From contig JAZKIU010000001.1 in NCBI GenBank assembly GCA_040384705.1, forward strand, positions 229,675 through 293,674: 64,000 nucleotides of DNA. Direction: 5' to 3'. The DNA is from Patescibacteria group bacterium. Lineage in GTDB: Bacteria; Patescibacteriota; Minisyncoccia; Phycocordibacterales; Phycocordibacteraceae. Position numbers and translations under genes: made by a program. Below the pieces are notes generated by a model. The model ran no database searches and was not told the DNA's origin. It saw only the letters and a program-made list of their open reading frames with translations. This document shows positions 24,430 through 57,790 of the stretch, in pieces (positions within the stretch are counted from its first letter, which is position 1; the number at the start of each line of letters is the position of its first letter).

Positions 24430-24975
24430 ATGACGGACGTTCCGCTTACGCCTGAGCAACTGCTCCGCAGAGCGAAAAGCCAGGTAACTGCACCGGCTTC
24501 CGGCCGCATCCTGGTGATGCTGTGCCCGGAAATGCCCGAATGGAATACCTTCGACGAGCTCGTCTCGCTCGGAGCGCCCAGTACCGATGCCGGATGCCGC
24601 TCCCGCATGTGGGAGGGAGCCCGGACGTGCTGCGAGCATAGGAAGGCAGGACGACCGCTTATCCTGCTCAACTACGGGCTCGGCAGCCATACGTATCTCG
24701 ATGACCCCCTCGCGTGGGGCCGGAAGGAGGGATTGGTTCCTGCGTGCGTCCATACATGCCTCGGCATTTCGGCTGCGCACCCCAATCTTCCGATTGACCG
24801 GTTTAAGCTCCATAGCGAACCGGGATTCAGCCTCTTCGTCCCGATCGTATACGACCATGAGAGCGAACGCCGCAACTTCCGTATCGGGTACAACGGGATC
24901 CGGCGCACGCTCGAGTGCTCATGGGCGGGATATGGGATAAGCGGGCACAACTGGTCCGTGTTCGAGGCCGCTTAG
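24430..24975 (+). CDS. Hypothetical Cys-rich protein, 181 aa
   Basis: A ribosome-binding site AGGAG sits 6 nt upstream. The protein has eight Cys, including a CC pair and a CxxxC. A terminator follows. No family is recognised. Confidence 0.5.
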   Translation: MTDVPLTPEQLLRRAKSQVTAPASGRILVMLCPEMPEWNTFDELVSLGAPSTDAGCRSRMWEGARTCCEHRKAGRPLILLNYGLGSHTYLDDPLAWGRKEGLVPACVHTCLGISAAHPNLPIDRFKLHSEPGFSLFVPIVYDHESERRNFRIGYNGIRRTLECSWAGYGISGHNWSVFEAA

Positions 24976-24986
24976 TTGCCTGATTC

Positions 24987-25025
24987 GACGCCTCGCCCTG
25001 CTTTCGGGCGGGGCGTCATTTGTTT
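24987..25025 (+). terminator. Rho-independent terminator
   Basis: GACGCCTCGCCC-TGCTTTC-GGGCGGGGCGTCATTTGTTT. Confidence 0.8.
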
Positions 25026-25214
25026 ACACACCTTGCAAAACAAGGAGGTAAGTGCTATAGTTCCCCCACAACGGTTACTCCATAGTGTTTGACGTCTTGA
25101 GAGCGAACTCATCAGGACCAGCCAAAGCGGAAAGCGCATCGGCTTGAAACTCTCGAGGACGGTTGATTACTCAACACGAAGAGCGATTACGCTCTCGTTC
25201 AAACAGATACATAC

Positions 25215-26624
25215 ATGCAAAATAGCAATTTCTCTTCACGCGATAAGCGTGGAGGCAATCGGTCGGGTGGTTCATCCTCCCGTCCTAGCCGCAGCGGCTC
25301 CAGCCGTGGTGGCGCAAGCAACGCGTACGAAGCGGGCATGCAGTTCGCTCTTGCGAACGGCGCTCCTCGTCGTCCTCAGCGTAGTTTCGGACCGCCTCGT
25401 GGCGGTGGCGGCTCCCGTGGCCCCTCGTCCTCTTCGCGTCCTTCGTTCGACCGTGGCCCTCGTGGTGGCGGTTCCTCGAACCGTTCCGGCGGCAAGCGCG
25501 GCTTCCAGGAGATGAACGTCGACCTGAATAAGCTCATCAACAAGGCCTCAGCACCTGAAACGGTAGAGGCATACGTACCCGAGCACGCATTCGCGGGCTT
25601 CGCTATCGATGAACGCCTCAAAGCGAACATCGCAAGCAAGGGATACGTCACCCCAACCCCTATCCAGGACCAGTCCATACCGCACGTCCTCAAGGGGCTC
25701 GATGTGGTTGGTCTCGCGAACACGGGTACTGGCAAGACAGCGGCATTCCTCATTCCGCTCATCGACAAGGTGCTCAAGTTCCGTGCGCTCGGCCAGACTG
25801 AGCGCGTGCTCATCATGGTTCCTACCCGCGAGCTCGCCATCCAGATTGAGCAGGAGTTCTTCGGCTTCGCCAAGGGCCTCCAGCTCAATTCAGTGACCAT
25901 CGTCGGAGGAGCTAACATCTCTCCGCAGATTCGTGTCCTTCGCCGCAACCCTTCCTTCGTCATTGGTACGCCCGGACGTCTCAAGGACATCATGGAGCGC
26001 AAGGAGCTCGACCTCTCCGACTTCGGTACCGTTGTTCTCGACGAGGCCGATCGCATGCTCGACATGGGATTCATCAACGATATGCGTTTCATCATGGGCT
26101 TCATGCGGAACGTCCGTCACACGCTCTTCTTCTCGGCAACGCTGTCGAAGGATATCGAGCGCCTCATCGGAGAGTTCCTCAAGGATCCGGTCCGCGTCTC
26201 GGTGAAGACCCGCGAGACCTCGCACACCATCGACCAGGACGTCGTGCGCGTCGCGCCTTCCGAGAAGCTCAACAAGCTCGTTGACCTTCTCCAGGCTCCG
26301 GACATGGAACGCGTGCTCGTCTTCGGACGCACCAAGCACGGCGTGGAGCGCCTCGCGAAGGACCTTCGCCAGGCCGGCATCAAGGCCGATTCCATCCACG
26401 GCAACAAGACGCACTCCGCGCGCCAGAAGGCCCTTGGGCTCTTCAAGCAGTCGCATGTGCGCGTGCTTGTGGCAACTGACGTCGCGGCTCGTGGTCTCGA
26501 CATCTCGGGGGTGACGCACGTCATCAACTTCGACCTGCCGGGCACCTACGAGGATTACACCCACCGCATCGGCCGCACTGGTCGCGCGGGCATGGGTGGG
26601 AAGGCGCTTACGTTCATCTCATAA
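25215..26624 (+). CDS. DEAD-box ATP-dependent RNA helicase with an N-terminal Arg/Gly/Ser-rich low-complexity extension
   Basis: It carries Q-motif, GTGKTAAF, DEAD (VLDEADRML), SAT and HRIGRTGR motifs. About 100 aa of RGG/SR-rich sequence precede the helicase core. A long 5' UTR separates the gene from the previous terminator. Confidence 0.9.
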   Translation: MQNSNFSSRDKRGGNRSGGSSSRPSRSGSSRGGASNAYEAGMQFALANGAPRRPQRSFGPPRGGGGSRGPSSSSRPSFDRGPRGGGSSNRSGGKRGFQEMNVDLNKLINKASAPETVEAYVPEHAFAGFAIDERLKANIASKGYVTPTPIQDQSIPHVLKGLDVVGLANTGTGKTAAFLIPLIDKVLKFRALGQTERVLIMVPTRELAIQIEQEFFGFAKGLQLNSVTIVGGANISPQIRVLRRNPSFVIGTPGRLKDIMERKELDLSDFGTVVLDEADRMLDMGFINDMRFIMGFMRNVRHTLFFSATLSKDIERLIGEFLKDPVRVSVKTRETSHTIDQDVVRVAPSEKLNKLVDLLQAPDMERVLVFGRTKHGVERLAKDLRQAGIKADSIHGNKTHSARQKALGLFKQSHVRVLVATDVAARGLDISGVTHVINFDLPGTYEDYTHRIGRTGRAGMGGKALTFIS

Positions 26625-36922: not shown

Positions 36923-37712
36923 GGCTCTCATCTGGAAGCATTACCGCACGCAGGGCAGGCATGACCTGCCGTGGCGGAAAACCACGGATGCATACCGAAT
37001 CCTCGTCTCCGAAGTAATGCTCCAGCAGACGCAGGTGGAGCGCGTCATTCCATACTATAAGAACTTCCTCAAGGAGTTCCCGACAGTCGTTGCACTCGCG
37101 AAAGCGCCCCTGTCCTCTGTTCTACGACAGTGGCAAGGGCTCGGATACAATCGTCGCGCCAAAATGCTGCATGAAGCAGCTAAAGTCGTGGTACGCGAAC
37201 ACAAAGTAAGAATGCCGACAGACATAATCGTGCTGGAATCCCTGCCAGGCATTGGTCCATACACGGCTCGTGCCGTCGCGGCGTTCTCTTCGAACACGGA
37301 CAGTATTTTCATAGAAACAAACATTCGGACGGTCATCACGCACCACTTCTTTCCGACGAAGGAAACTGTCTCGGATAAAGAGGTGCTCGAAGTACTTAAC
37401 AAGGCATATCCGAAAGGGAAGGCGCGGGAATGGTATGCAGCCCTCATGGACTATGGCTCGCATCTAAAGCGAAGCGGCGTCCGCATCAACGCAAGAGCGA
37501 AGGGATACACGAAGCAATCAAGATTCGAGGGTTCAGAACGCCAAGCGCGTGGCGCCATACTCCGCGCCCTTCTATCCGGGCCCAAAACGAAGAAAGCCCT
37601 CATAGGACTTCTTGGAATAGAACGCCAACCCCAGATGGAGTCTGCCCTTGCAAAGCTTACTCAGGAAGGCTTGGTGGCAAGGACTGGGACAAGGTTCTCC
37701 CTGCCTGGGTAG
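36903..37712 (+). CDS. MutY/Nth-family HhH-GPD DNA glycosylase lacking both the Fe-S cluster loop and the C-terminal NUDIX domain
   Basis: The N-terminal LIWKHYRTQGRHDLPWRK, ILVSEVMLQQTQVERVIPYY and LPGIGPYTARAV motifs match the MutY catalytic domain. The C-terminus has no Cys. Confidence 0.7.
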   Translation: MTPSTFRALIWKHYRTQGRHDLPWRKTTDAYRILVSEVMLQQTQVERVIPYYKNFLKEFPTVVALAKAPLSSVLRQWQGLGYNRRAKMLHEAAKVVVREHKVRMPTDIIVLESLPGIGPYTARAVAAFSSNTDSIFIETNIRTVITHHFFPTKETVSDKEVLEVLNKAYPKGKAREWYAALMDYGSHLKRSGVRINARAKGYTKQSRFEGSERQARGAILRALLSGPKTKKALIGLLGIERQPQMESALAKLTQEGLVARTGTRFSLPG

Positions 37713-38881
37713 CGGGTGTCCTGGACGCGCAGCCCCATCACCGTGCCGGCAAACGCAATGGCAAGACCGAGTACGAAGAAGAGCATGCTATAGCCACCGA
37801 GGATGAGGAAGAGGCTGCCGAGCAAGGGTGCGACGAGCGCGCCCCCCGGCCGCATCATGCGGAACACGCTCACCGTGTTAGGGTCACGCTCGGAGACACG
37901 CCTGAAGAAGTGCCCCTCAACCATCGCTTCGGCGAGCGCCGCACCGATGCGGGTGAGCACCAATATAGCGAGGATGACAGCAAGCGGCGTCGCGGCGTCA
38001 ACGAAGGTGAACGCCGCGAACGCGAGGCCCATGATGATGAATCCCGCGACCAGAAGGAGCCGGTCGCCGAAGTACCGGTCAGCGAGATACCCCGCAGGGT
38101 ACTCGAGGAACACGAACGGGAGCACCATGATGGCGAACATCCAGCCGAGCTGGTCCCACGGCATGCCGAGTACCGTATGGAGATAGATGGGGATATAGAG
38201 CGGGGCGAGATGGAAGAATATCTGCAAGAGACCGTACGAGAAGGCGACGGCCCGGAAATCACGGTCTCCCCACATGCAGGTGAATACCGACGCTATCTTG
38301 CTCCCGCGAGGGGGCAGTCCCTCCGGTATGTGCTCCACCAGGAAGAGCATGATGAACGGGGTAAGCGATACCGCGGCTGCGAAGAAGACGAGGTCGTATC
38401 GGTTCGTCCCATCAAGGAGAAGTCCCACCAAAAGCGGGGCGAGCACGAGCGCGAGGCTGCCCATCGTCATGAACGCGGTACGGACGCGGCCGGTCGAACC
38501 CTCTTCCTTAACGGTCGCTTCCAGCAGGAGATCGAGCTGGTACGCGAGAAGCGGAGAGGTCGCGCAGGCGAGCGCGACGCACGCGATGGCTATGGCCACT
38601 GAAGGATTGCCCGCAAGTATGGTGAGCACGACTGCCTGGAAGAAGGCGAGCGCGATAGCGATGCGTTTCGCGCCGCGCTTGGCGACCAATCGCGGCATGA
38701 TCGGGAAGAGAAGGAGCGTAATGACCGCCCCCATTGTTATGACGAGCCCGGCTCCTGCGACGCCGATGAGCGTCTCGAGATACGGTCCGACTATGTAAAT
38801 GATGAGGAAGAAGTGCGCGGCAGAGAAGAAATTGCCGAGCCACAGGACCTTTCGCGCTTGCATGTCAGGAAATTGTATCAC
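37661..38881 (-). CDS. MFS transporter
   Basis: It has 12 TM helices and MFS-typical loop motifs. Its 3' end converges on and overlaps the glycosylase gene. Confidence 0.85.
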   Translation of the reverse strand: MIQFPDMQARKVLWLGNFFSAAHFFLIIYIVGPYLETLIGVAGAGLVITMGAVITLLLFPIMPRLVAKRGAKRIAIALAFFQAVVLTILAGNPSVAIAIACVALACATSPLLAYQLDLLLEATVKEEGSTGRVRTAFMTMGSLALVLAPLLVGLLLDGTNRYDLVFFAAAVSLTPFIMLFLVEHIPEGLPPRGSKIASVFTCMWGDRDFRAVAFSYGLLQIFFHLAPLYIPIYLHTVLGMPWDQLGWMFAIMVLPFVFLEYPAGYLADRYFGDRLLLVAGFIIMGLAFAAFTFVDAATPLAVILAILVLTRIGAALAEAMVEGHFFRRVSERDPNTVSVFRMMRPGGALVAPLLGSLFLILGGYSMLFFVLGLAIAFAGTVMGLRVQDTRYPGRENLVPVLATKPS

Positions 38882-38952
38882 TCGCTCCTCCCTCGGTTGC
38901 TATCGGAAGGGAATTGAGGCAGGATGGCGCAAGACCAACAGGGGGAATCGTG

Positions 38953-39651
38953 ATGGCGAACGCCAGGAAGCGTGACTATAAGACCGAGAAAGAGCTCTGG
39001 AGGATGATGTTCGGGCCGACAAAGATAGCGGCTATCCGTCGCGAGCAGGCTGACCAGAACTTCCGGGAGGTATTCGAGGATGGGCACGCCACTTCCATCC
39101 GCGAGTTCCTGGAGCCCTACGCTGAAGACTATCGTCGGATGCTCAGGCGTCGCGGATTGGCATGGAAGCATATGACCCAATTCCATCCCGATGCGTTTCC
39201 GCTCCTGCTCAAACATGGGGTCGACTATGAGCCGTATGTCTTCGATGACTACATGTATCGGGAAAAGATACAGCCGTGGGCGGGGAAATGTTTCGCGAAC
39301 TCATGGTTCATCGTGGACAACCACGCTCGCATGAAAGGGCCGGAAGATCGTTCCCTGACATACGTGGAAGGGTTCCTGATGGGAGTACTTGCGTTACCTA
39401 TGCTGCACGCGTGGAATGGCCTCGACGGAGAGCGACCGGTGGCATGGGACTGGAGCCACTATGCGACTACGGGGTGGAGCCGGTACTTTGGCATCCCTTT
39501 CACGAAGGAAGAGTACGATTTCATCATGCAGACGGCGTACGGCGAGCCGATGATCCATTCCTTGTTCGATCGCAAGAACTTCGAACGACACCGGGCGCCG
39601 CTGCTAGAAGTCCTTTCGCGCCGAGATAACAAAGAGAAGCCCGCTGCATAA
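38953..39651 (+). CDS. Hypothetical cytoplasmic protein, 232 aa
   Basis: A ribosome-binding site AGGGGGAA sits before ATG 38953. A terminator follows. It has conserved-looking Cys (CFANSW) and His residues. No family is recognised. Confidence 0.5.
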   Translation: MANARKRDYKTEKELWRMMFGPTKIAAIRREQADQNFREVFEDGHATSIREFLEPYAEDYRRMLRRRGLAWKHMTQFHPDAFPLLLKHGVDYEPYVFDDYMYREKIQPWAGKCFANSWFIVDNHARMKGPEDRSLTYVEGFLMGVLALPMLHAWNGLDGERPVAWDWSHYATTGWSRYFGIPFTKEEYDFIMQTAYGEPMIHSLFDRKNFERHRAPLLEVLSRRDNKEKPAA

Positions 39652-39682: not shown

Positions 39683-41638
39683 CTAGACCCCGATCAATAC
39701 CGGAATGACCATCGGTGCCTTATTCGTCCTCGCGAAGAGGTACCCTGCCATGGTGTCGGAGAGCGCATTCTTCACGTAGTCGAGGTCGACGGGGTTCATG
39801 CCCTGTGTCGAGTCCTCGACGGTCTTCTTGATGAGAAGGCGTGCCTGGTTGAGCATGTCCTGGCTCTCGCGCAGGTACACGAAGCCACGGCTGATGATGT
39901 CCGGCGACTTGCGCAGCTTCCCGGTCTTGAGGTTCACGGTCGCGATGATGACGAACATGCCGTCCTTCGCGAGCATCTGGCGATCACGTATGACCACCTC
40001 CTGCATGTCCCCGATGGAGAAGCCGTCGACTACGAGCGGAGAAGAAGGAACCTTCTGCTTGTGGACGTTCAGGCGCTCTCCGTCCTCGATATCGATGACG
40101 GTACCGTTATCAGCGACGATGATGCTCTCGCGCGGGCGTCCGGCCTGCTCGATGGCTTTCGCGTGCGAGGCGGTCATCGAGTAGTAGCCATAGGCGGGCA
40201 TGAAGAACTTCGCGTTCACCTGCTGGTTTATCCAGATGAGCTCGCCCGTGTTGCCGTGCCCGGTCGAGTGCACGTCGCTCGATCGGTAGTGGATGAGGGT
40301 AACGCCATTGCGGTAGAGGTTGTCCTTCAGGCGCTGCACCGATATCTCGTTGCCTGGAATAACGGAGGACGAGAGCACGATGGTGTCCTTGTTGGTGAGC
40401 GTGATGTTCTTGTGCTGCTTCGTCGCGATGCGCATGAGGGCAGCGAACTCCTCGCCCTGGGCACCCGTCGCAAGAATGACGACCTTGTCGGGAGGGTAGT
40501 CACCTATTTCCTGCGCCGAGATGAGCGTCTCCTTCTTGATGTTAAGAAGGCCCGTCTTCTGCGCTATCTCGAGGTTCGTCTTGATGGAGCGGCCTTCGGT
40601 GACAATCTTCTTGCCGAGCGATTCAGATATCTCGATGATGCGTATCATGCGCTCGAACTGCGATGCGAAGGTACCGATGATGAGGCGGCCCTGCACCGTC
40701 TTGATGATGTTCTCGAGGGTCTCGTGCACCTTGCGCTCAGGCACGGAGAATCCGTCGCGCTCGGCGTTGGTCGAGTCCGCGATGAAGAAGAGGTTCTTCT
40801 GGGAGGCGAGATGGCCCCACGTCTTCACTTCCTTCTCGGTCGGTATGCCGTTCTCGTGGTCGAGCTTGAGGTCACCGGTGACGACGACGTTTCCGTGCGG
40901 TGTCTCGATAGCGATACCCATCGAGTCAGGAATGGAGTGCGTGACGGGGAAGAACTGCACCTTGGTAGAACCGATGGTCATCGTCTGGCCCACTTCGACG
41001 ACGACGAGGTTCGGCTTTGGCATATCGGGATACTCCTCCTGGCGCTTCGCTATCATCACCGCGGTGAGGTTCTGCGTGTAGATAGGCGGATTGCCGAAGC
41101 GGTTCATGAGGAACGGGATACCGCCGATGTGGTCGAGGTGACCGTGCGTGATGAATACGCCGCGCACGCGGTCGATGTTCTTCTCGAGGTAGCTCGTGTT
41201 CGGGAGGATGTAGTCGACGCCCGGGGAAGTGTCCTCGGACGTGAACTGGAACCCTACGTCGAATATGAATATGTCGCCGTTGGTCTCGACGGTGAACATG
41301 TTGCGGCCGACTTCCTCCACGCCACCCAAGGGAACGATGCGTACGACGCCTTCTGCGGGCTTCGCAGGGAAGTAGTCAGGAATGGCTTTGGCTTGGGTAG
41401 TCGCCTGGGACGGACCGCTTGGGCGACGGAGAGTACGGCGAATTTGGCGCGAGACGCGACCGGGGCGCTCAGCACCTCCGCCGCCACCACGACCGCCGCG
41501 AGAACCGCGGCCACGGGGGGCGTCGCCTTCACGGCGAGGTTCGCGCGGGCCTTGTGGCGGCCGTGCTGACTGGTTGCTTCCTTGCGGGTTCCGGGGAGCC
41601 GGAGCGGGCGCAGGAGCGGGAGCAGGTGATGGAGACAT
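39683..41638 (-). CDS. rnj: Ribonuclease J (beta-CASP metallo-beta-lactamase RNase) with a Pro/Ala- and Arg/Gly-rich N-terminal extension
   Basis: It has an HxHxDH motif (ITHGHLDHIGG) and beta-CASP plus C-terminal domains. About 90 aa of low-complexity sequence (PAPAPAPAPA, RGRGSRGGRGGGGG) precede the catalytic core. Confidence 0.9.
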   Translation of the reverse strand: MSPSPAPAPAPAPAPRNPQGSNQSARPPQGPREPRREGDAPRGRGSRGGRGGGGGAERPGRVSRQIRRTLRRPSGPSQATTQAKAIPDYFPAKPAEGVVRIVPLGGVEEVGRNMFTVETNGDIFIFDVGFQFTSEDTSPGVDYILPNTSYLEKNIDRVRGVFITHGHLDHIGGIPFLMNRFGNPPIYTQNLTAVMIAKRQEEYPDMPKPNLVVVEVGQTMTIGSTKVQFFPVTHSIPDSMGIAIETPHGNVVVTGDLKLDHENGIPTEKEVKTWGHLASQKNLFFIADSTNAERDGFSVPERKVHETLENIIKTVQGRLIIGTFASQFERMIRIIEISESLGKKIVTEGRSIKTNLEIAQKTGLLNIKKETLISAQEIGDYPPDKVVILATGAQGEEFAALMRIATKQHKNITLTNKDTIVLSSSVIPGNEISVQRLKDNLYRNGVTLIHYRSSDVHSTGHGNTGELIWINQQVNAKFFMPAYGYYSMTASHAKAIEQAGRPRESIIVADNGTVIDIEDGERLNVHKQKVPSSPLVVDGFSIGDMQEVVIRDRQMLAKDGMFVIIATVNLKTGKLRKSPDIISRGFVYLRESQDMLNQARLLIKKTVEDSTQGMNPVDLDYVKNALSDTMAGYLFARTNKAPMVIPVLIGV

Positions 41639-41723
41639 AACGATGAATGATTTAGAACAGGATAATTAATTTCCTACCAAGTAGAGAGCAGTAGGCACGG
41701 GAAGCGAGAGGTCGCTTAACCTA

Positions 41724-43445
41724 CTACTTGCTACTCACTAAGATTGGCCACACGAATTCGGTATACCGATGCCAGCTCGCGACCGTAGCGAAACGGTCAG
41801 AGGGCGACGTAACTTGCGGAAGCACGATGCCCTTAAGGTCCTTAGGTACAGCATACAGGAAGTCAGGCGCATGCGTAAAGGCGGCAGGATAGTCAGCTGC
41901 TATAAGCTGGCCCGCGCTCACGATATCGGCGTGCGCAGCCTCCGTATCGCTCTCGGCGCGTGCCTTTGCTAGGAGCGCGTCCACCGTCTCGTTCGTATAC
42001 AGGGCGACGTTGAGCCCTGGGTCCCGGCGCTGGCTTGAGTGCCAGAACGCGAAGAGGTCACGATCGCGTCCCACCACCTCCCCGAAGAGAAGGGCGTCGT
42101 ACTCGCGCGGGCGTATGACTTCCTGCGTGAGGCTGCCCGGCTCATACAGCTCGAGCGCGACCGGTATCCCAAGCAGCTCCCAATCCGCCTGCACCGAGGA
42201 AGCGATGAGCTTGAGCTCTGCCACGCTCGAGGTGCGGAGCGTGATGGTAGGCATTGCGGTCTCTCCCTTCGTCCATCCCACACCCTCCTCATAGTCCCAA
42301 CCGCCCTCATCAAGAATGAGGCGCGCCGCTTCTATGCGGGTAGCAGGGTCAGGAAGCGCTGCCGGCTCGAATGTATCGGCTCCTTCAGGAGGGAGCGGTC
42401 CGGTGAGCGGCGTCGCGTACCCACCAAGCAGGGTGTTCACGATGTTGTCGCGATTGATGGCAACGGAGAGCGCCTCGCGCACTTCTTTGTTCTCGAAGAT
42501 AGGCTGCTTATCCGGGTTATAGAACACCCCGAACACGCGTGCATAGGGCGCACGCAGCGCTCCGTCCTTCGCGACCCCGTATGCGCTCTCGACCGCGCCC
42601 CGACGTACCGCCCCAGCAAGATCGGAAGGGGAGGTGAAGAACTTGAAGTGGATACCATCGAGATAGGGGCGGCCCGTCGCGTATCCCTTGAAGGCGACGA
42701 GATCGTATTCCTTGATGACACCGTTCCCATCACGCAGCACGTTCGTGACGCGGAAGGGACCTGCCGCTACCGGACGCTCCATAAGAGGGGAGAAGGGGAA
42801 CTGGTCGTTCGGCACATTCCTCCAGAGCTTAGAGGGGAGTATGCCGAGCGTGGTGTCCTCGATGAACGGCGCGTACGCCTGCGGTAGCGTGAAGCGCACG
42901 GTGCGTGAGTCCACTACCTCCGCGCGGATGTTAGCCCAGTTCGCGTACTCCGGGGACTTGAGCGTAGGGTCCTGCGCCTTCTCGACGGTGAACACCACGT
43001 CTTCTGCGGTCACCGGCGTATTGTCCGAGAACTTCGCGTGCTGGCGGATGATGAACGTATACGTCTTGCCGTCCTCCGATATGGTGTAGCTCTCAGCAAG
43101 GACCGGGGTGAGCTCGCCGGTAGCGGATATGCCCATGAGCCCTGCGTAGGTGAGCATGGTGAGATCGCGGTCGGCGTCGGTGAGCGCAAGAAGGGGATTC
43201 ACGAAGCGAGGAGCACCCACCATGCCTTCGATGAGCGTTCCGCCGCGAGCAGGCTGCTCGACAAGGAAAGTCTTCTGCAGCTCGCGTATGCCCATGAGGC
43301 AGCTCACGACTACGGCAAGCGCGAGAATGCTCGCGATGAGCTTATCCCCCGGCGGGAGCCTGCGGATATGCGAAAAGAACCGGGAGATAGCCGCCGGCTT
43401 CTGGAACGATGGGAAAGTAGTGGGGAAGCGAGAGAACCGCTCCAT
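41724..43445 (-). CDS. ABC transporter substrate-binding protein, family 5 (peptide/nickel type). No cognate permease or ATPase gene is adjacent.
   Basis: It has an N-terminal anchor and the SBP_bac_5 architecture (OppA/DppA-like). Confidence 0.85.
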   Translation of the reverse strand: MERFSRFPTTFPSFQKPAAISRFFSHIRRLPPGDKLIASILALAVVVSCLMGIRELQKTFLVEQPARGGTLIEGMVGAPRFVNPLLALTDADRDLTMLTYAGLMGISATGELTPVLAESYTISEDGKTYTFIIRQHAKFSDNTPVTAEDVVFTVEKAQDPTLKSPEYANWANIRAEVVDSRTVRFTLPQAYAPFIEDTTLGILPSKLWRNVPNDQFPFSPLMERPVAAGPFRVTNVLRDGNGVIKEYDLVAFKGYATGRPYLDGIHFKFFTSPSDLAGAVRRGAVESAYGVAKDGALRAPYARVFGVFYNPDKQPIFENKEVREALSVAINRDNIVNTLLGGYATPLTGPLPPEGADTFEPAALPDPATRIEAARLILDEGGWDYEEGVGWTKGETAMPTITLRTSSVAELKLIASSVQADWELLGIPVALELYEPGSLTQEVIRPREYDALLFGEVVGRDRDLFAFWHSSQRRDPGLNVALYTNETVDALLAKARAESDTEAAHADIVSAGQLIAADYPAAFTHAPDFLYAVPKDLKGIVLPQVTSPSDRFATVASWHRYTEFVWPILVSSK

Positions 43446-48103: not shown

Positions 48104-48188
48104 GGAGGCGTCGGATAGCGGTTTATTCCACCACCTTGGAAAGGTGGCATATCGAAAGGTATCGAGAGTTCGAATCTCTCCGCCTCCG
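48104..48188 (+). tRNA. tRNA-Ser with a GGA anticodon and a long variable arm. No CCA is encoded.
   Basis: The acceptor stem is GGAGGCG/CGCCTCC. The anticodon stem CCACC/GGTGG encloses the loop TTGGAAA. The variable arm is 17 nt. The T-arm is GAGAG-TTCGAAT-CTCTC, and the discriminator base is G. Confidence 0.85.
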
Positions 48189-48258
48189 CTACAATCGTTT
48201 TCTTCATACCCACCCACCGGCATAATTCCTGGCGGGTCTGAATGTATACTTCCCATAT

Positions 48259-48891
48259 ATGGGCACGCTTCCTCATGGCGCACGATATGCTGTCGTATTG
48301 CTTGCGGCCTGCGCTATCATGCTCGCTGCGTTCGCGCTCGTGAACGCGGAAGACAGTGTCTTCGGCGAGCACGTCACAAGCCCTCGCCCGACGGTGACTT
48401 CCGCCCTTGTCGTCTCTGCGGGCTCAAGAAGCATCGAGGTAATAGAAGCCGAAGGGACTGACGAATCGGTACTGATCGTCGTGCGTATACTCGCGGACAC
48501 GGTGATATTCGCTGGCAGGGATACGGTTGAATCGGACGCGCTCGCGCAAGGGCAGCGTATCCAGATCCGCGGCACCAGGACGGAGAGTGGGATAGACGCA
48601 AGCATGATACGAATAGTCACCCTCGGAGAGGTCGAGATCGACGAGGAAGAAGTGCAGCCACTGCTCGCGGAAGAAATCGTGCCGGAGACCGTGCAGCCGG
48701 AGCCGGTTCCTGAACCCGCGCCGCCGCTCGAGTCGTCAGCCCCTCCTGCACCTGAGCCGCTCCCACCTGTGGAAGAGCCTGTCGAGGAGGAGGTGCCCGC
48801 GCCGGAACCGGAAGAGCCTCTGCCCGACGAAATAGAGCAGATGCCCGTGGTAGAACCCGCGCCGCCCGAGGGTGAGCAGCCCGAAGCATGA
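48259..48891 (+). CDS. Secreted or anchored protein with a Pro/Glu-rich C-terminal region. It is the first gene of the giant-surface-protein cluster.
   Basis: It has a signal or anchor sequence and a PEPVPEPAPP low-complexity tail. Its stop overlaps the next start (ATGA). Confidence 0.55.
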   Translation: MGTLPHGARYAVVLLAACAIMLAAFALVNAEDSVFGEHVTSPRPTVTSALVVSAGSRSIEVIEAEGTDESVLIVVRILADTVIFAGRDTVESDALAQGQRIQIRGTRTESGIDASMIRIVTLGEVEIDEEEVQPLLAEEIVPETVQPEPVPEPAPPLESSAPPAPEPLPPVEEPVEEEVPAPEPEEPLPDEIEQMPVVEPAPPEGEQPEA

Positions 48892-51800
48892 TGCGGACCG
48901 CGTATACCTCGCGCGTGCGATTCTTGGCAGCGCTCGTCCTGATGACTTTGGTCGTCATCGTCCTCTATCAGGCACTTACCGCACGCGCATTCTCGTCCGG
49001 TGCGGGTACCTGGGACGATCCGTACGTCGTCACTACCTGTGCGGAGCTCGAGAGCATAGGCTCCACGGCCGCCAACCGTCATGCGAATTACGTGCTCGGC
49101 AACGATATTGATTGCTCCAGCATCCCGAGCTACACGCCGATAGGTACTGCCAATAGCCCGTTCACCGGCCGCTTCGACGGCGCAGGGTACACCATCTCGC
49201 ACCTGACCGCAGGCAGCGCGTTCGCATCGTACGTCGGTGTATTCGGGCATGTATACGGCGGCGTCGTGCGGAACGTGCATGTGGATGACGCTGATATCCT
49301 CGGCGAGGATCATTTGGGCGCGGTCGTTGGGCAGCTGAACGCCGGTATGATCCTTGGGGTGCGGGTCACGAACTCCGCCATAGTCGTGAACGACGGACCT
49401 CGCGCAGGCGGCATCGTCGGGAACGCGACCGAATCCTATCTCAATACCGTCTCGGCGACCGGCACGAGCATAACGCTCACCAATGACACCGGGAGCAACA
49501 GCGGCATCGGCGGCATCGCGGGCGATGCGGATTTCACCAATATCACGAACGCGTATTCCGATGCGACCATCGCCGCTACCGGTGCGACCTTGGTCGGCGG
49601 CATCGTCGGCGGCTCGGCGCGCAACGTCGAGATCTCCGATTCCTATTTCGTCGGTACGGTAACCGGCACGAGCCTCGTGGGCGGTATTCTCGGGGGCGCA
49701 TCCACGGCATCAGCACCCATCACCGTGCGTTCATCGTATTTCTCCGGGGCCGCGACCGGCACCGCAGTTACGGCTATAGTGGGAGGCCTTGTCGGCAGCA
49801 TATCCGCTTCCGCATCCTTGATACAGGACTCCTTCTCGACTGGTGCGGTGTCGACAAGCACGAACGCCGGCGGCATCGTCGGCAGCTCGAACACCGCGGC
49901 GGCGAACTTCAGCAATCTCGTGTACTCCCGTGTCGGCACGACACGCTCGCGTTGCGAAGGGAACTCGCTGCCTTTAGGTGACGCTACCTATACATCCGGC
50001 CAATGCACCTTCCAGGATACGGACTCTTATTACAACAGCAGCAGCAATGCCCCGCTCTCGTCCTGGAACTTCACCGACATCTGGGAAACGGTCCCATCGA
50101 ACCGTCCGATACTCCGTGCATTCCCCTTCGTGGAGGCGACCTCCTATACATCAGTCGGCTCATGCGCCGCGCTGTCCGCAGCGCTACTCGACAATGCGAA
50201 CGGCTGGTACAGCCTCACAGGCGACATAGACTGCGCAGGAGATACCGCGCTCGCGCCCTTCGCCAGCACCTCGAGCAAGGCGTTCACGGGCAGACTCGAC
50301 GGGAACGGGCACACCATCGATGGCGTTTCGTACACCACAAGCGCTTCGGGGAACCATTATGGACTCTTCATAGCGGCATTCGGTGCTATCTTCGAGGACT
50401 TCACGCTTGCTGGTACCGGTATCGTTGCGGAGAACAAGACGGAAGTCGGCGGGCTCGCCGGCATCGGGAGCGGCAGCGTACTGCTGGGCGTGCATAGTAC
50501 GGTCCCGGTCGAGACCGGTTCGGGCGGCGACTACGTCATCGGCGGCCTGGTGGGCCAAGGCGGCGGGCTCATCATCGAGGACTCGAGCGTGAATGCCGAC
50601 GTGACGACCGACGGCTTCGGGTACGCGATAGGCGGGTTGGTCGGATTCGCCAACTATCTCCATGTAACGGACAGCCAGTACCTTGGGGGCACGGTTCGGG
50701 GCGGCGATACGGTCGGCGGCATCGTCGGGTTCGCGTCGGCCGTCTATATGGACTCGGTCGCAAGCGCGGGCACCATCACTGGCTCTTCCTATATGGGAGG
50801 CCTTGGAGGCGACGTGCTCGGGCCCTCTACCATCTCGAACTCGTCCTCGACGGCCAGCATCGTCGGGAACACCGACTACGATACCTTCTTCGGGAATATC
50901 GGCGGGCTGGTCGGGAGTGCATTCGATATCGCGTTCCTTAATGTCGTCTCGCAGAACCTCATAGATATCAGTGTCGGCGACGGAGCGGAAAGCGTCGGCG
51001 GCATCGCGGGGGTGATCGATAGCAGCGGATATACGATGACGAACGCGACCTCGACCGCAACCTTCGTCATTGCGGGGGACGCGGGCTCGTTCTGGGGGAG
51101 TATCGGCGGGCTTGTCGGCGGATCCTCCGGCCATACCTATAGCAATCTCTATGCCTCCACCACTATCGAAGTAGCAACGGCGCTCGCGCCTGCCGCTACC
51201 ATCGAGTCCATCGGCCTCATTCTCGGACTGAGCGATGGGGATACCATGGCCAGCAGCTCGGCTCTTGGAGCGATCGTGCTCCATGGCAATACGGCGAGCG
51301 GCGTCCTCAGCGATATTGGCGGCTTGGTCGGATCGATGAACGGATTCGACCACGCCGAGAACTTCGTTACGGCGGACATCGATATCACCGGCTTCAATGT
51401 ATCGAATATCGGCGGATACGCAGGCTCCGCATATGGCATCGGCTCCACACTCACGACTTCGTACGCCACGACCACCGTCACCATCCTTTCCTCGACGCCG
51501 AGCAGTATCGGCGGGTTCTTCGGGGATTTCACCAGCGCGGGGATAACGGAAACGTTCGCTCTGGGCTCGCTCGATATAACGGCCGGGCAAGGAGGCACGG
51601 GCCATGGCACACGCACAGGCGGCTTCGTCGGGAGCGCGTCGGGCGGCACGTTCGAGAACGTATACACTGCCGTGGATATATCGCTTACGGAGAATACTGC
51701 TTCTGGGAATGGCTCATCGTTCGGCGGCTTCGTCGGGTATCTCGCAGGGCTCGTCACGCTCGATAACGTGTACGCTTCGGGCGATCTTATATTCACGGCT

Positions 51801-54329
51801 TCCGGAGGCTCGACCGTTAACAGAATCGGTGGCCTCCTCGGAGAGTCTGCGGCCGCTACGAACGCCATATCGAATAGTTTCAGCGCAGGTGCGGTCACGC
51901 CGATAATCGGCTCGCTCCAGGTCGGTGGGTTCTTGGGCTTGCATAACGGCAGCGAGACGCTTGATAATAATCACTATGACGTCACGCGTTCGGGACAGGC
52001 CTTCTGTACGCAGACTGATGAAGCCTGGTGCACAGGCGACAACGTGGGCTCGGCGGACTCCGACTATTTCTATGATGATGCGAACGAGCCGATGGCGAGC
52101 TGGGACTTCAGTGCCGTCTGGGATTCCCACGATGATACGCATCCGACGTTCGAGTACTTCGCTTCCCTGTTCGGTCCAGGCGCAGAGGACGGAGGGGGAG
52201 CGACCGCGCCCACGATGACGGCCAGTGCCGCGTCCGCGGTCACGGATACCACGGCGACGCTTAACGGGAACATCACTGCCGTCGGTTCCGCGACACCGAC
52301 CGCTCGTGGCTTTGAGTACGGCCTCACGACCGCGTACGGCGCGACGACGACGGAAGCAGGGAGCTTCTCGACCGGAGCGTACACCGCATCCGCGTCGAGT
52401 CTCACATGCAATACCGCGTATCATTTCCGCTCGTACGCGACGAGCGCGGACGGCACCGGCTACAGCGCTGACGACACATTTACGACGAGCGCGTGCACAG
52501 GAGGCGGAGGCGGTGGAGGGAACGGTAGCGGCAGGAGGGAGATAGAGCCGCCCGTCATCTCGAACGTGAGGAGTACCATCACAGACGGAAGCGTCCGGAT
52601 AACGTGGGACACGGATACTCCCGCGTCGACGCAGATAGTATACGGACCGACGCAGTGCCTCGGCCTTTCGACCCCGGAATCCAATACGGGCACGAGCCGT
52701 ACGACCAAGCATGTGGTCGTGCTTCCGACGTTCGCCTGCAGGAACAGTGCCCACTTCTCCGCGCTGTCGGTAGACGCGCATGGGAACAGGAGCGTTTCCC
52801 CCGGACATTCCAATAATCTATTGCTGTGCCCAGCGTTCTCTCCGCCGCCGAGCCCCTCGCTTCTTAGTTGTCCCTATCCGCAGCCAGCTGTGCCTGTGCC
52901 AACTCCAGTGCCAGTAGCGCCCGCGCCCGCGATAAGCAGTCCTGTAGTGGAGATTCCAATCCCGCCCGCAAGCGAAATCGAACCGACGGTCATCGTCAAC
53001 GGAGGGAATCCAATTACGAACGATCCGATAGTGGGTGTACAGGTAACGCCTCCGGCAGGCACGGTCGCCTTCGTACTCTTCGATGCCGAAGATCCCTCCC
53101 ATACGGTATCGGTGCCGGTAGCCGTCGGAACCGTGGTCGTGGACCAGGAATGGGAGCTCTGCACCAATGCTTCAGCGTGTACGGGCGGGGAGCACACGCT
53201 CGCAGTATTCTTCATCGACGCGAGTGGGGCGGAATCGACCGTGATACGCCGCACCGTTACGCTCGTGAGCGGGAGGGAAGAACCGACAGCTATTTCCGCT
53301 GGCACTGAAGGAGATTCGATATTCACGCGGATAGCGGCAGGCATTGAGCGCATACTGACGGATGGCTCCCGAGCAGTCGCTCCTGTCCTCGCCTTGCTAC
53401 CTGCGGCGGGTATCGCCACGAGCGCGCTTGGAATCATCTGGGCCCTCGCTTCGCGGCTGCGTTCGCTTAGCGATATACCGATGCTTGCATATCGCGCGTT
53501 CGCTACGATATTCGGGTTCGGGTACCTGCGCAGGCGTGACAGGGCGTGGGGAACCGTGTACGACAGCCGGACGCGCCGCCCGCTCGACCCTGCGGTCGTC
53601 ACCCTGCATGACGCATCCGGGAAGGATATGAAGACGGTCATCACTGATCTCGACGGACGATTCGCCTTCCTGGCAGATGCAGGCACGTATTCCATCACCG
53701 CCGCGAAGGGCCATCATTCATTCCCTGCGCAGAACCTTCCCGCTATCGATCCGCTCTATCCATACCCATACACGGGCGGACCGATACCGGTGGGAGAGGA
53801 GGGCGTCATCGTGAAGGATATCCCACTCGACCCGGTCGATTTCGACTGGAACGAGTACGAGAAATACCGCCGCGGCCTCTACCGGTTCTTCTCCCGCTTC
53901 GACCGTCCGCTCGCGTACGCCGCCCTCATCCTCACCCCGCTCGGCGCGCTCATTTCGCTCGTTGCTGCGGTCCTCGAGCCATCGGTCATCAATATCGTGT
54001 TCCTCTTCCTCTATGCGCTCATCGGGCTCCTCTATTACGTCGCCGGGTTCGCTCCTCGCGTCTACGGCATGCTGCTTGACGCCACTGGGCAGCCGCTCGC
54101 GTTCGCCGTCGTGAAGGCGTTCCGTCCGGGTGCGACCTCGACCGGCATCCATGTGGTGGCTGACCATCTCGGCCGCTACTACCTCCTCCTGCCGCGCGAA
54201 AGCGAGTTCGATATCCAAGTGGAGATGCGTGCTGGCGAAGAAGCGTATACGCCCGTCTTCCGCGAGCGACTCACGGGATTGAAGGGGCACCTCAATCGTC
54301 ACATCCGCGTACCGCTCGATTTACCGTAG
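48888..54329 (+). CDS. Giant 1813-aa surface protein with many GLUG-type glycine-rich repeats, an Fn3/PKD-like domain, a poly-Gly linker, and C-terminal TM helices flanking two carboxypeptidase-regulatory-like (CarboxypepD_reg) domains
   Basis: It has a signal peptide and repeated IGGLVG, VGGIVG and AGGIVG motifs. PPVISNVRSTITDGSVRITWDTDTPASTQIVYGP reads as Fn3-like. GTVYDSRTRRPLDPAVVTLHDASGKDMKTVITDLDGRFAF reads as CarboxypepD_reg-like. Confidence 0.8.
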   Translation: MMRTAYTSRVRFLAALVLMTLVVIVLYQALTARAFSSGAGTWDDPYVVTTCAELESIGSTAANRHANYVLGNDIDCSSIPSYTPIGTANSPFTGRFDGAGYTISHLTAGSAFASYVGVFGHVYGGVVRNVHVDDADILGEDHLGAVVGQLNAGMILGVRVTNSAIVVNDGPRAGGIVGNATESYLNTVSATGTSITLTNDTGSNSGIGGIAGDADFTNITNAYSDATIAATGATLVGGIVGGSARNVEISDSYFVGTVTGTSLVGGILGGASTASAPITVRSSYFSGAATGTAVTAIVGGLVGSISASASLIQDSFSTGAVSTSTNAGGIVGSSNTAAANFSNLVYSRVGTTRSRCEGNSLPLGDATYTSGQCTFQDTDSYYNSSSNAPLSSWNFTDIWETVPSNRPILRAFPFVEATSYTSVGSCAALSAALLDNANGWYSLTGDIDCAGDTALAPFASTSSKAFTGRLDGNGHTIDGVSYTTSASGNHYGLFIAAFGAIFEDFTLAGTGIVAENKTEVGGLAGIGSGSVLLGVHSTVPVETGSGGDYVIGGLVGQGGGLIIEDSSVNADVTTDGFGYAIGGLVGFANYLHVTDSQYLGGTVRGGDTVGGIVGFASAVYMDSVASAGTITGSSYMGGLGGDVLGPSTISNSSSTASIVGNTDYDTFFGNIGGLVGSAFDIAFLNVVSQNLIDISVGDGAESVGGIAGVIDSSGYTMTNATSTATFVIAGDAGSFWGSIGGLVGGSSGHTYSNLYASTTIEVATALAPAATIESIGLILGLSDGDTMASSSALGAIVLHGNTASGVLSDIGGLVGSMNGFDHAENFVTADIDITGFNVSNIGGYAGSAYGIGSTLTTSYATTTVTILSSTPSSIGGFFGDFTSAGITETFALGSLDITAGQGGTGHGTRTGGFVGSASGGTFENVYTAVDISLTENTASGNGSSFGGFVGYLAGLVTLDNVYASGDLIFTASGGSTVNRIGGLLGESAAATNAISNSFSAGAVTPIIGSLQVGGFLGLHNGSETLDNNHYDVTRSGQAFCTQTDEAWCTGDNVGSADSDYFYDDANEPMASWDFSAVWDSHDDTHPTFEYFASLFGPGAEDGGGATAPTMTASAASAVTDTTATLNGNITAVGSATPTARGFEYGLTTAYGATTTEAGSFSTGAYTASASSLTCNTAYHFRSYATSADGTGYSADDTFTTSACTGGGGGGGNGSGRREIEPPVISNVRSTITDGSVRITWDTDTPASTQIVYGPTQCLGLSTPESNTGTSRTTKHVVVLPTFACRNSAHFSALSVDAHGNRSVSPGHSNNLLLCPAFSPPPSPSLLSCPYPQPAVPVPTPVPVAPAPAISSPVVEIPIPPASEIEPTVIVNGGNPITNDPIVGVQVTPPAGTVAFVLFDAEDPSHTVSVPVAVGTVVVDQEWELCTNASACTGGEHTLAVFFIDASGAESTVIRRTVTLVSGREEPTAISAGTEGDSIFTRIAAGIERILTDGSRAVAPVLALLPAAGIATSALGIIWALASRLRSLSDIPMLAYRAFATIFGFGYLRRRDRAWGTVYDSRTRRPLDPAVVTLHDASGKDMKTVITDLDGRFAFLADAGTYSITAAKGHHSFPAQNLPAIDPLYPYPYTGGPIPVGEEGVIVKDIPLDPVDFDWNEYEKYRRGLYRFFSRFDRPLAYAALILTPLGALISLVAAVLEPSVINIVFLFLYALIGLLYYVAGFAPRVYGMLLDATGQPLAFAVVKAFRPGATSTGIHVVADHLGRYYLLLPRESEFDIQVEMRAGEEAYTPVFRERLTGLKGHLNRHIRVPLDLP

Positions 54330-57500: not shown

Positions 57501-57790
57501 GGATGGGAACGACGAACGATGCGACCGAGGTTCTTGAGCTCCAAGGCTTCCTCAACGAGCACATGGGAGCAGGACTGCCCCTCACCGGCTTCTTCGGAGC
57601 CATGACGGACGCGGCGGTGCACGCCTTCCAGAAGAAGCACTGGGAAGATGTGCTCAAGCCATGGTTCCCATATCCTGCTGAGGGTATCCATGATGCGGAC
57701 GATTCCACGGGCTACGTGTACAAGACGACGCAGTGGAAGATAAACGACATCTACTGCCCGGACATAGCGCCGTTCCCACCGCTCCCGTAA
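54521..57790 (+). CDS. Large 1089-aa secreted repeat protein ending in a PG_binding_1 peptidoglycan-binding domain
   Basis: It has a signal peptide, two paired roughly 150-aa repeat types (C..LSDTTTLEGG...WIWGE and ...YRLVGYK...), a poly-Gly linker, and a C-terminal LELQGFLNEHMGAGLPLTGFFGAMTDAAVHAFQKKH. Confidence 0.8.
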   Translation: MKKNDARMTALRKSLAVFNAGLLMFALVAINSPLIAIAQTTDVTPAVEPVEEVVPETEESILPPADDIVPPADDVALVPPEEGVVPPQEEVPPVVEETVEPVLERAAEVLEEAVLIDEGPQCIILSDTTTLEGGDASVEVSPLNAGWTAVVDVLAKWIWGENPVADPINDVTEVFTKTFSITDDSSGGTLIVAADNSYTVMLDGNPIGNPNDSDDEDNYHAGKEDTIAISAAALGAGSHTLTFTVKNWGQANGTAAKNPAGLKYKLTIDETDCGTPPPPREQCVLVSDTTTLEGGTASALVTFIHNSWTALIQSASWIWGEDPATDTAAGKTEIFTKTFWLDGAVASSTLLIAADNGYTVELNGVEVGADPQEKNYTAAGQDVITIDAGDFNVGANTLVFTVDNFPLANGTSQTNPGGLLYRLTIDGTECDDVPPAQETATVYIMKYLKTANGTEQVLDGSGAPAFPMTASWNATNIGAGSGGYTLTAPTYGATTSAMSSPADYTTSEVTDGSVVLPANTPDEQCTPGKYRLVGYKSGFTLTDAQNAAVSATAPVYTDITSDRYIIVVNEDCDELNEDPDPTTLQVHIYKHLKDEQSTGQVSNGANVPDFPMTATWTTANLNGGATTSGAYVLGNSHGGATFEHAANTSPMQAPADYTTSEVTDGSVVIANGQQCVADKYRLVGYKWGTTYAEAVATTTVTVAAPEFTDLTSDRYVIVVNEDCDDVLDDGEPTGPDEQTIVITGNTSGGENQLGWLFNRDTNTQSPYAFQAGNAATGTGSLYVSPITNTINGNNDKFIGELFLQEQIADIDSISYDFKIGTPDSTVEEQFYMSVYANFGESSPTKFYDCRYNVVPSTGSTGGFTTVTFDPSQVYGVTQHGTSPHPCPATPSGMDALTTGSSTIRVIALNVGDTTGSDTGVSGYLDKVIVALNDLITTYDFEPAPIVPGNDGDNNRSGGGGGGGGGSSSSAARTGSVLGATTDAVCSALLSTFMRMGTTNDATEVLELQGFLNEHMGAGLPLTGFFGAMTDAAVHAFQKKHWEDVLKPWFPYPAEGIHDADDSTGYVYKTTQWKINDIYCPDIAPFPPLP

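Follow-up and report, generated by a model that had tools for sequence, protein, structure and literature searches.

Arginine- and glycine-rich N-terminal tails on a DEAD-box helicase and RNase J of Paceibacteria, and a conserved structured leader RNA upstream of the helicase gene

The stretch of DNA analysed here, which we call the window, is a 64-kb segment with a GC content of ~59% from a tiny-celled member of the Patescibacteria (candidate phyla radiation), Paceibacteria/Parcubacteria group, and it carries the genes for a DEAD-box RNA helicase and for RNase J. Its proteins find their best matches in metagenome-assembled genomes labelled Patescibacteria, Paceibacterota and Parcubacteria, and an NCBI protein encoded on a 640-kb contig is 100% identical to the RNase J. 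The helicase is encoded by a 469-amino-acid open reading frame (ORF) on the plus strand at 25215-26624, and RNase J, a protein of 651 amino acids, is encoded on the minus strand at 39683-41638. Each enzyme begins with an N-terminal extension, predicted to be disordered, in front of its catalytic core, and the helicase gene lies behind a leader that folds into a conserved structured RNA. Here, we follow up a preliminary description of the two extensions and the leader with comparisons to related genomes, structure predictions and covariance models.

The helicase core (25512-26624, +) contains two RecA-like domains and all of the diagnostic motifs of a superfamily 2 DEAD-box RNA helicase, namely the Q motif GYVTPTPIQ (25641-25667), motif I ANTGTGKT (25716-25739), DEAD (26040-26051), SAT (26133-26141) and motif VI HRIGRTGRAG (26562-26591). 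Pfam places the DEAD domain at residues 148-316 (154 bits) and the Helicase_C domain at residues 350-459 (109.8 bits), with matches to the NCBIfam helicase models beginning at residues 124-131. The best NCBIfam models are those of CshA and RhlE, the closest solved relative is CshA (5ivl), and Vasa and DDX3X are among the best structure matches to the core. Every curated NCBIfam equivalog cut-off is missed, and the helicase therefore falls outside the named groups (RhlE, CshA, DeaD, type II RhlB). Against a cut-off of 646 bits for CshA (NF053631), the score reaches 395.8, with model positions 1-341 of 434 covered and the C-terminal dimerisation/RNase-Y-binding region of CshA not present; for RhlE, RhlE1 and RhlE2 it is 341.7, 342.2 and 363.2 bits against 743, 750 and 925, with no C-terminal tail; and for the RhlB models it is 259-292 bits against 564-732, with an N-terminal disordered tail of the kind seen in type II RhlB being present. 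The helicase may thus work like type II RhlB, though it is not a member of the RhlB group. The protein ends about 10 residues past the Helicase_C domain without a C-terminal tail, and all 63 orthologues in our alignment terminate 0-5 residues past ALTFI, so that the N-terminal tail is the sole accessory region of this helicase family.

This tail, residues 1-99 (25215-25511, +), is rich in Arg, Gly and Ser and is predicted to be disordered. By count, 22 of its residues are G, 22 are S, 16 are R and 8 are P, whereas just 9 are bulky hydrophobics; its net charge is ~+14, and it holds seven RG and four RGG motifs, including the clusters RGGGGSRG and RGPRGGG. When an RGG/RG region is defined by RG or RGG repeats no more than 4 residues apart within a disordered region, both this tail and that of RNase J qualify; the clusters in the helicase are sparse and Ser-rich, and RG/SR-like is thus the better term for its tail. 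An AlphaFold model built from the 63-sequence alignment has a predicted local distance difference test score (pLDDT) below 50 at residues 2-34 and at nearly all of residues 49-98, and a confident core. Between these two segments lies the island NAYEAGMQFALANG (residues 36-49; 25320-25361, +), which is conserved as (S/N)AYEAGM(R/K)FA(L)(E/D)NG and is predicted to form a short helix, modelled with low confidence over residues 36-47 (pLDDT 52-59). The tail is laid out as a variable RG/S-rich spacer around an AYEAGM(R/K)FA island, a candidate docking motif. In a sister clade, the tail starts MATTYI(V/R)RKN...RPGY.(R/K)FA in place of the AYEAGM-type island. Codon usage also differs between tail and core, with 12 of the 16 Arg codons of the tail being CGT and 20 of the 27 in the core being CGC, and GC content at third codon positions drops from 0.79-0.84 in the cores of helicase and RNase J to 0.54-0.58 in their tails. 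Such a bias may have arisen because G-rich structures are avoided where the mRNA encodes RG.

Whether the tail is translated from the ATG at 25215, or whether the true start is the internal methionine at residue 100 (25512-25514, +; MNVDLNKL) with 25215-25511 serving as a 5′ untranslated region, is central to this description, and public annotation favours the internal start. The NCBI protein for this same gene (P0006) is 100% identical over 370 amino acids and starts at Met100, and ~20 of the top 120 helicase relatives, about one in six, are likewise annotated at 366-373 amino acids with the tail removed. Met100 is nearly invariant, lying within the conserved motif FQEMxVDLxKLINKA (25503-25547), and an AGGAG abuts its ATG, whereas no Shine-Dalgarno sequence is found 5′ of 25215. 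Comparative data point firmly the other way. In each of the 79 species-representative genomes or loci in which the gene could be located, the frame 5′ of Met100 is open and R/G/S-rich for 25-115 codons, despite many insertions and deletions. Compared with a 97%-identical relative (locus L004), 17 codons of the tail differ synonymously and 2 non-synonymously, the nucleotide changes being spread 2/1/18 over the three codon positions; for a second relative (L005), the counts are 41 synonymous and 14 non-synonymous (15/13/47 by position). Arg codons in the helicase and RNase J tails are all CGN (16 of 16 in the helicase tail), matching the cores, and the AYEAGMxFA island shows conservation of its protein sequence. 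Genes annotated as short have the tail ORF as well: at three loci with gene calls of 370-371 amino acids, the upstream frame is open and, from an upstream ATG onward, specifies a tail that is rich in RG and includes the conserved island. The helicase ATG also stands at a near-fixed distance from the leader RNA motif described below, 48 nt past it here and 43-64 nt in relatives, and in more distant families the equivalent N-terminal ATG lies directly behind a -10 box, which suggests that the helicase mRNA is leaderless there.

The ribosome-binding signals do not favour the internal start either. The AGGAG lies 0 nt from the Met100 ATG, too close for a ribosome-binding site, and simply follows from the conserved Gln-Glu codons within the FQEM motif, E99 and M100 being conserved in at least 90% of the helicase sequences. 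The missing Shine-Dalgarno sequence at 25215 is unremarkable because many genes of the window look leaderless or lack such a sequence. Many start codons window-wide lie 5-12 nt after a TAnnnT (-10-like) box without a Shine-Dalgarno sequence, and GGAG-like sequences stand upstream of a minority only, which suggests that leaderless mRNAs are widespread in the source genome. Examples of such boxes are found upstream of the starts at 29774 (-), 31695 (-), 33084 (-), 33603 (+), 19497 (+) and 48259 (+). Taken together, the comparative data effectively refute an untranslated tail, which we consider extremely unlikely, and identify the helicase tail as a genuine translated protein segment with its start at ATG 25215; the 370-amino-acid gene calls, including P0006, are probably wrong. 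What weighs against so simple a picture is that internal initiation at Met100 may also produce a second, tail-less isoform.

RNase J presents much the same picture on the opposite strand. The protein has metallo-beta-lactamase, beta-CASP and C-terminal domains, with HGHLDH at 41129-41146 (residues 165-170), and it scores 490.1 bits against a cut-off of 400 for the RNase J family (TIGR00649), supported by the Pfam matches RNase_J_b_CASP (141 bits), RNase_J_C (83 bits) and Lactamase_B (65 bits). Among solved structures, that of Bacillus subtilis RNase J1 (3zq4) is the closest, and with 548.3 bits against 820 for RNase J1 (RnjA, NF047419), we file the enzyme as a generic RNase J. The core begins at about residues 98-99 and is preceded by ~82-98 residues rich in Pro, Arg, Gly and Ala. 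This extension, residues 1-98 (41345-41638, -), contains 19 P, 16 R, 15 G and 13 A. From its N-terminus, the layout consists of (AP)4-5, an RG-rich spacer, an Arg-rich motif and (K)K.ADY.P..P just before the core, represented here by (AP)5 at 41594-41626 (within PAPAPAPAPAP, residues 5-15), an RG tract at 41474-41515 (with RGRGSRGGRGGGGG at residues 42-55 and the RG cluster RGRGSRGGRGG), the basic motif RPGRVSRQIRRTLRRP at 41420-41467 and IPDYFPAKP at 41357-41383. Among 120 RNase J orthologues, ~105 keep this layout and start MSxAPAPAPAP, with A8, P9, A10, P11, Y89 and P91 invariant. When three orthologues are compared, 53-61 differences fall on third codon positions and 15-26 on positions 1 and 2, and by this measure the RNase J tail is translated, just as in the helicase. 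In the AlphaFold model, pLDDT is below 50 for nearly all of residues 1-82, whereas the segment containing DYFP is packed against the core. A truncated call of 545 amino acids (P0134) exists for RNase J beside the one of 651. The 5′ region of the gene is short (~20-30 nt) and A/U-rich and lies behind a -10-like box; no leader like that of the helicase was found upstream of it, the covariance models described below matching the window only once. The neighbourhood of the gene (41639-43445 on the minus strand, and 37661-39651) is syntenic in three relatives (L204-L206), in which an SBP_bac_5 solute-binding protein gene lies upstream and an MFS transporter gene lies downstream.

The preliminary description had reported ~100 RGG/SR-like residues before the helicase core and an RNase J tail opening with PAPAPAPAPA, and both are as described, the helicase tail amounting to ~99 Arg/Gly/Ser-rich residues at 25215-25511 and the RNase J tail to ~82-98, on a minus strand that had been left unstated. 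Alignment of orthologues shows the extensions to be conserved in position and composition for both enzymes, and AlphaFold predicts both to be disordered. Of the two findings named at the time as fatal to the idea, neither holds: the internal methionine is not the only helicase start, and the orthologues do have the extensions. The lack of a canonical ribosome-binding site before 25215 was also correctly noted, and is normal for this window.

Upstream of the helicase, a terminator-like GC-rich hairpin (24987-25017, +), with a 12-bp stem containing 10 GC pairs and followed by ATTTGTTT, would mark the end of the preceding transcription unit. It is followed by a promoter-like site, TTGCAA-17 nt-TGcTATAGT, with an extended -10 element (25033-25061, +) and a predicted transcript start at ~25066-25069, from which a leader of ~147-150 nt is predicted. 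An equivalent TGcTATAnT box stands 6-8 nt upstream of a conserved ACAAC in ~39 related loci. The 190 nt originally given for this leader is in fact the distance from the upstream terminator hairpin. A leader of ~150 nt is still exceptional among the genes of the window, many of which look leaderless, and what lies there is more than merely long. It holds a three-way junction of 103 nt (25065-25167, +), scoring 110.5 bits with our covariance model as the only match in the 64-kb window, and this junction starts no more than ~4 nt from where the helicase mRNA is predicted to begin. The closing helix, P1, is long and interrupted (CAAC/GUUG, GUU/GAC, CUC/GAG, GUUU/AAAC). It encloses the conserved hairpin P2 (25094-25118; GUCUUGAG...CUCAUCAGGAC, with the 3′ strand also given as CUCNAGAC) and the variable hairpin P3 (25120-25144), and GAAACUCU forms a conserved single-stranded stretch of the leader RNA. 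Past the junction, the full-leader fold and the upstream sequences of relatives contain a further hairpin, P4 (GAAGAGCG-AUUA-CGCUCUCG; 25178-25197, +), conserved in position and variable in sequence, and then an A/C-rich stretch, UUCAAACAGAUACAUAC (25198-25214, +), directly before the ATG, without a Shine-Dalgarno sequence and with a similar A/C-rich context in relatives. In one metagenome relative (L092, 7744-8030), an insertion of ~135 nt separates motif and ATG, placing the ATG 183 nt past the motif.

The leader is conserved in blocks among relatives whose helicases are only 62-83% identical, and independent minimum-free-energy folds of 39 leader sequences share one architecture of P1, P2 and P3. 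A first covariance model, built from six sequences, gave a single match in 32 related loci, directly before the helicase ORF and on its strand; a second found the motif in all of loci L004-L043 and in none of L044-L083, which belong to more distant families, such as Adlerbacteria, where the helicase gene is often leaderless-looking. Scanning metagenomes with a degenerate pattern returned 120 stretches, 16-19 of which are real by the covariance models and the rest chance matches, and every metagenome instance with enough downstream DNA is followed by a tail-bearing helicase ORF. Across ~40 genomes and 16-19 metagenome contigs, the motif lies, wherever the downstream DNA is long enough, on the gene's strand between the -10 box and the helicase ATG. 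In a model-fitted alignment of 38 sequences, 93.8% of the cells are standard-paired against 29-44% in slid controls, 17 of the 28 pairs show compensatory double changes, and none of 500 shuffles reaches the observed values. Three points count against this evidence. The alignment behind the pair counts was itself fitted to the model; RNAalifold recovers just P2 from a plain MAFFT alignment, and P2 and P3 without P1 from the model-fitted one; and the window motif, folded by itself, reaches a modest z-score of -1.8. Because the alignment was fitted to the model, an alignment-free check of P1 was added, in which 33 of 37 distinct sequences have at least six end-to-end base pairs of P1 in their minimum-free-energy fold, compared with 20% of shuffles. 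Covarying structure, fixed position and same-strand location between promoter and ATG are the general marks of a cis-regulatory structured mRNA leader, and all are found here. The leader is a conserved structured RNA tied exclusively to the helicase gene.

At the gathering score, Rfam 15 has no match in the leader, RNase P being the sole RNA-family hit of that search in the whole window, and relaxing the threshold to E≤10 over 24950-25300 yields only a spurious partial match to HCV CRE outside the motif. A literature search on Patescibacteria or Parcubacteria with DEAD-box, RNase J or RNA motif returned nothing relevant, and we found no paper describing the leader motif. In four distant relatives (L054, L079, L074 and L080; Vogelbacteria and Taylorbacteria), CUC...GUUU and AAAC..CGAGA boxes recalling P1 can be made out by eye and go undetected by both models. 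The motif may extend further in diverged form.

How the two tails relate to one another was addressed by a survey of ~542 long ORFs from the window and 80 related loci, using a 30-amino-acid RG-rich stretch as the criterion. The only credible genes with such a stretch are helicases and RNase J, and the same holds for the window's own genes; four other ORFs passing the threshold look like off-frame artefacts and were set aside. The preliminary description had proposed a shared module. Common composition and N-terminal location bear this out in part, but homology does not: an hhalign comparison of the two tail profiles gives a probability of 0.2%, with no similarity, and the conserved islands are separate, AYEAGMxFA in the helicase and (AP)n, RVSRQIRRTLRR and DY.P in RNase J. 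The tails are best read as convergent, sharing composition and location only, and, being non-homologous, they would have been acquired independently.

From these features, a working model can be drawn in which disordered, strongly positively charged N-terminal extensions, kept across Paceibacteria, would serve each enzyme as an auxiliary, non-specific RNA-binding arm, raising local affinity for RNA, loading the catalytic core onto its substrates and increasing the activity of that core, and in which they may also drive RNA-dependent clustering. In the helicase, the accessory region would have been relocated from the usual C-terminus to the N-terminus. The islands AYEAGMxFA, (AP)n, RVSRQIRRTLRR and DY.P, set within fast-evolving RG-rich spacer, look like docking motifs, and would be short linear motifs for specific partners. 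RNA binding, condensate formation and partner docking are all inferred here, the first two by analogy with RhlE and type II RhlB, and that the tails are RNA-binding auxiliary arms on helicase and RNase J is, in our judgement, probable. Two points weigh against this reading. The helicase spacer turns over fast, with the tail ranging across families from 25 to 115 R/G/S-rich residues in the 79 loci, so that part of the tail may be under compositional or weak constraint only. In addition, a phmmer search with helicase residues 1-99 against 1.84 billion representative proteins gave 0 matches at E≤0.001, the orthologues also being missed, as the low-complexity query has no power and tells nothing about module sharing; the tail could thus not be linked to any characterised RNA-binding module.

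The same features allow two other readings of the tails. They could be primarily a protein-protein assembly device, with the islands docking the helicase onto RNase J, directly or via a shared partner, as a minimal degradosome, and with RNA binding secondary. Docking motifs typically take the form of short, strongly conserved, partly helical islands amid variable spacer, a degradosome of RNase J and a helicase is found in Helicobacter (PMC3592473), and in the sample surveyed, such tails are found only on these two enzymes. However, the Helicobacter RNase J extension is dispensable for helicase binding and activation (PMC3592473), the two tails are non-homologous, and, in a sample of helicase tails, the helicase island is absent from many families that keep a tail; we consider assembly as the primary function unlikely. 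Less likely still, and in our view improbable, is that the tails are low-complexity expansions, neutral for the most part, of a sort that GC-rich coding DNA readily generates and that the N-termini of abundant proteins tolerate without their having a specific function. The rapid change of the RG-rich segments in length and sequence (25-115 residues), the conservation of composition only over most of the tail, and the low structure confidence are what such expansions would produce. They would not account for the presence of tails in every relative across wide divergence, including AT-rich Paceibacteria families, nor for the third-position and synonymous excess that shows purifying selection, nor for the invariant islands of RNase J (APAP, Y89, P91). 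Moreover, ~460 neighbouring genes have no such tails, and the helicase is without any other accessory domain. An auxiliary RNA-binding role for both tails remains the reading that we prefer.

As for the leader, its most likely role is to govern how stable the helicase mRNA is or how it is translated, and regulation of this kind is probable by analogy with known leaders; Escherichia coli DeaD autoregulates via its 5′ UTR (PMC7430678), and 5′ structures are roadblocks to RNase J1 and to RNase J-type 5′ exonucleases in Firmicutes (PMC3997798). One can envisage a mechanism in which P1, located at the extreme 5′ end, would shield the helicase mRNA from 5′-to-3′ attack by RNase J. Helicase recruited to its own leader via the RG-rich tail would open P1 and expose the 5′ end, whereupon RNase J would degrade the helicase message, closing a negative feedback loop in which the helicase level would be set jointly by the two tailed enzymes. 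That helicase, RNase J and leader RNA form one such feedback circuit, with the leader as a cis-regulatory RNA of a new, helicase-sensing class that is confined to candidate-phyla bacteria, is a tentative proposal that we hold at low confidence. What counts against it is that the RNase J loop is pure inference.

With a comparably low degree of confidence, the leader could instead be mainly an RNA thermometer or cold-shock switch, like the cspA or deaD leaders, rather than a feedback element sensed by helicase or RNase J. Cold induction and long 5′ UTRs are classic traits of DEAD-box helicase genes (PMC7430678, PMC3590241), and the leader has an alternative fold at similar energy, which makes two conformations possible: the 5′ strand of P2, GUCUUGAGAG (25094-25103), can pair with the distal box CUCUCGAGGAC (25151-25161), which is part of the 3′ strand of P1 and a near-duplicate of the P2 3′ strand. 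For the full window leader and for three relatives, the fold with this pairing is the one of minimum free energy. In a subclade with a different P2, however, it is impossible, and the 3′ box is still conserved there; we rejected a GUCUUGAGAG/CUCUCGAGGAC switch as a universal feature for this reason. Neither is the start codon region sequestered by the motif, nor does the sequence carry a sign of temperature dependence, and a mainly thermal role strikes us as doubtful.

Elsewhere in the window, the RNA genes detected are only a class A bacterial RNase P RNA (120 bits; 59372-59703, -) and a tRNA-Ser(GGA) (48104-48189, +). Two adjoining, very large ORFs with hydrophobic N-termini, at 48888-54329 (+; 1813 amino acids) and 54521-57790 (+; 1089 amino acids), probably encode giant surface or secreted proteins, which candidate-phyla bacteria commonly possess.

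In Patescibacteria, whose genomes are tiny, RNA biology has hardly been studied by experiment, and here their main RNA helicase and main 5′ exonuclease/endonuclease both carry conserved disordered polycationic tails. N-terminal disordered tails have one described precedent each for a bacterial DEAD-box helicase and for RNase J, in other phyla and with unrelated sequences, and such tails on RNA-decay enzymes are thus not restricted to Helicobacter and Pseudomonas. New are the occurrence of both tails together, conserved across the candidate-phyla class Paceibacteria, the position of the helicase accessory region at the N-terminus, the conserved tail islands, and the helicase leader RNA motif. 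In practical terms, about one in six of the listed close relatives has a helicase gene call that is probably wrong and open to correction, and helicase, RNase J and the 103-nt RNA together make a clonable system for work on RNA decay control in minimal cells and on bacterial RG-tail condensates.

Outside the bacteria, the eukaryotic helicases DDX4/Vasa, LAF-1 and Ded1/DDX3X have N-terminal RG/RGG tails that bind RNA and drive condensates. The window helicase resembles them in carrying an N-terminal, RG/RGG-rich disordered tail on a DEAD-box core, a likeness that we regard as convergence in another domain of life. Eukaryotic RGG tails are regulated by arginine methylation, which is not known in this Patescibacteria lineage. 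Among bacteria, the closest parallel for RNase J is Helicobacter pylori, where RNase J and the helicase RhpA form a minimal degradosome. As in that organism, the RNase J described here has a lineage-specific N-terminal extension of ~100 residues or more that is predicted to be disordered, and a DEAD-box helicase is also encoded. Full activity requires the Helicobacter extension, which is 132 residues long (PMC3592473), but RhpA is bound and activated without it (PMC3592473, PMC10700544). The extension has been proposed to contribute to foci and described as distinctive of Helicobacter (PMC3592473, PMC10700544); its dispensability for RhpA binding calls for caution on a degradosome-assembly role here. 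In contrast to it, the Paceibacteria tail is Pro/Arg/Gly/Ala-rich with an invariant (AP)n and an arginine-rich motif. Between the two extensions, no sequence similarity is detectable: phmmer aligns residues 140-653 of the Helicobacter structure (8cgl_A) to residues 94-610 only of the window enzyme, and a PDB search aligned nothing to its residues 1-90.

For the helicase, a close bacterial counterpart is the type II RhlB of Pseudomonas aeruginosa, whose N-terminal disordered tail confers RNA-dependent phase separation and increases RNA binding, ATPase activity and unwinding (bioRxiv 10.64898/2026.03.23.713837). Both have a disordered accessory region of ~100-110 residues at the N-terminus of a bacterial DEAD-box helicase, while the window helicase comes from Patescibacteria, has no RNase E context, and possesses its own conserved island. 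In RhlE, it is basic, C-terminal disordered tails that promote RNA binding, unwinding and phase separation (PMC11260450). The window helicase shares the RecA-RecA core of RhlE, CshA and DeaD but carries its tail at the opposite end, with no C-terminal extension. The preliminary view that RGG tails are normally C-terminal is thus right for RhlE, CshA and DeaD, and is qualified by the N-terminal tail of Pseudomonas type II RhlB. Finally, as with deaD/csdA, rne and pnp in E. coli, a gene for an enzyme of RNA metabolism stands behind an unusually long leader. The E. coli leaders mediate feedback via mRNA stability (PMC7430678), and that of deaD is 838 nt long and Rho-dependent, whereas the leader of the window helicase is ~150 nt long and places its 103-nt three-way junction at the very 5′ end.

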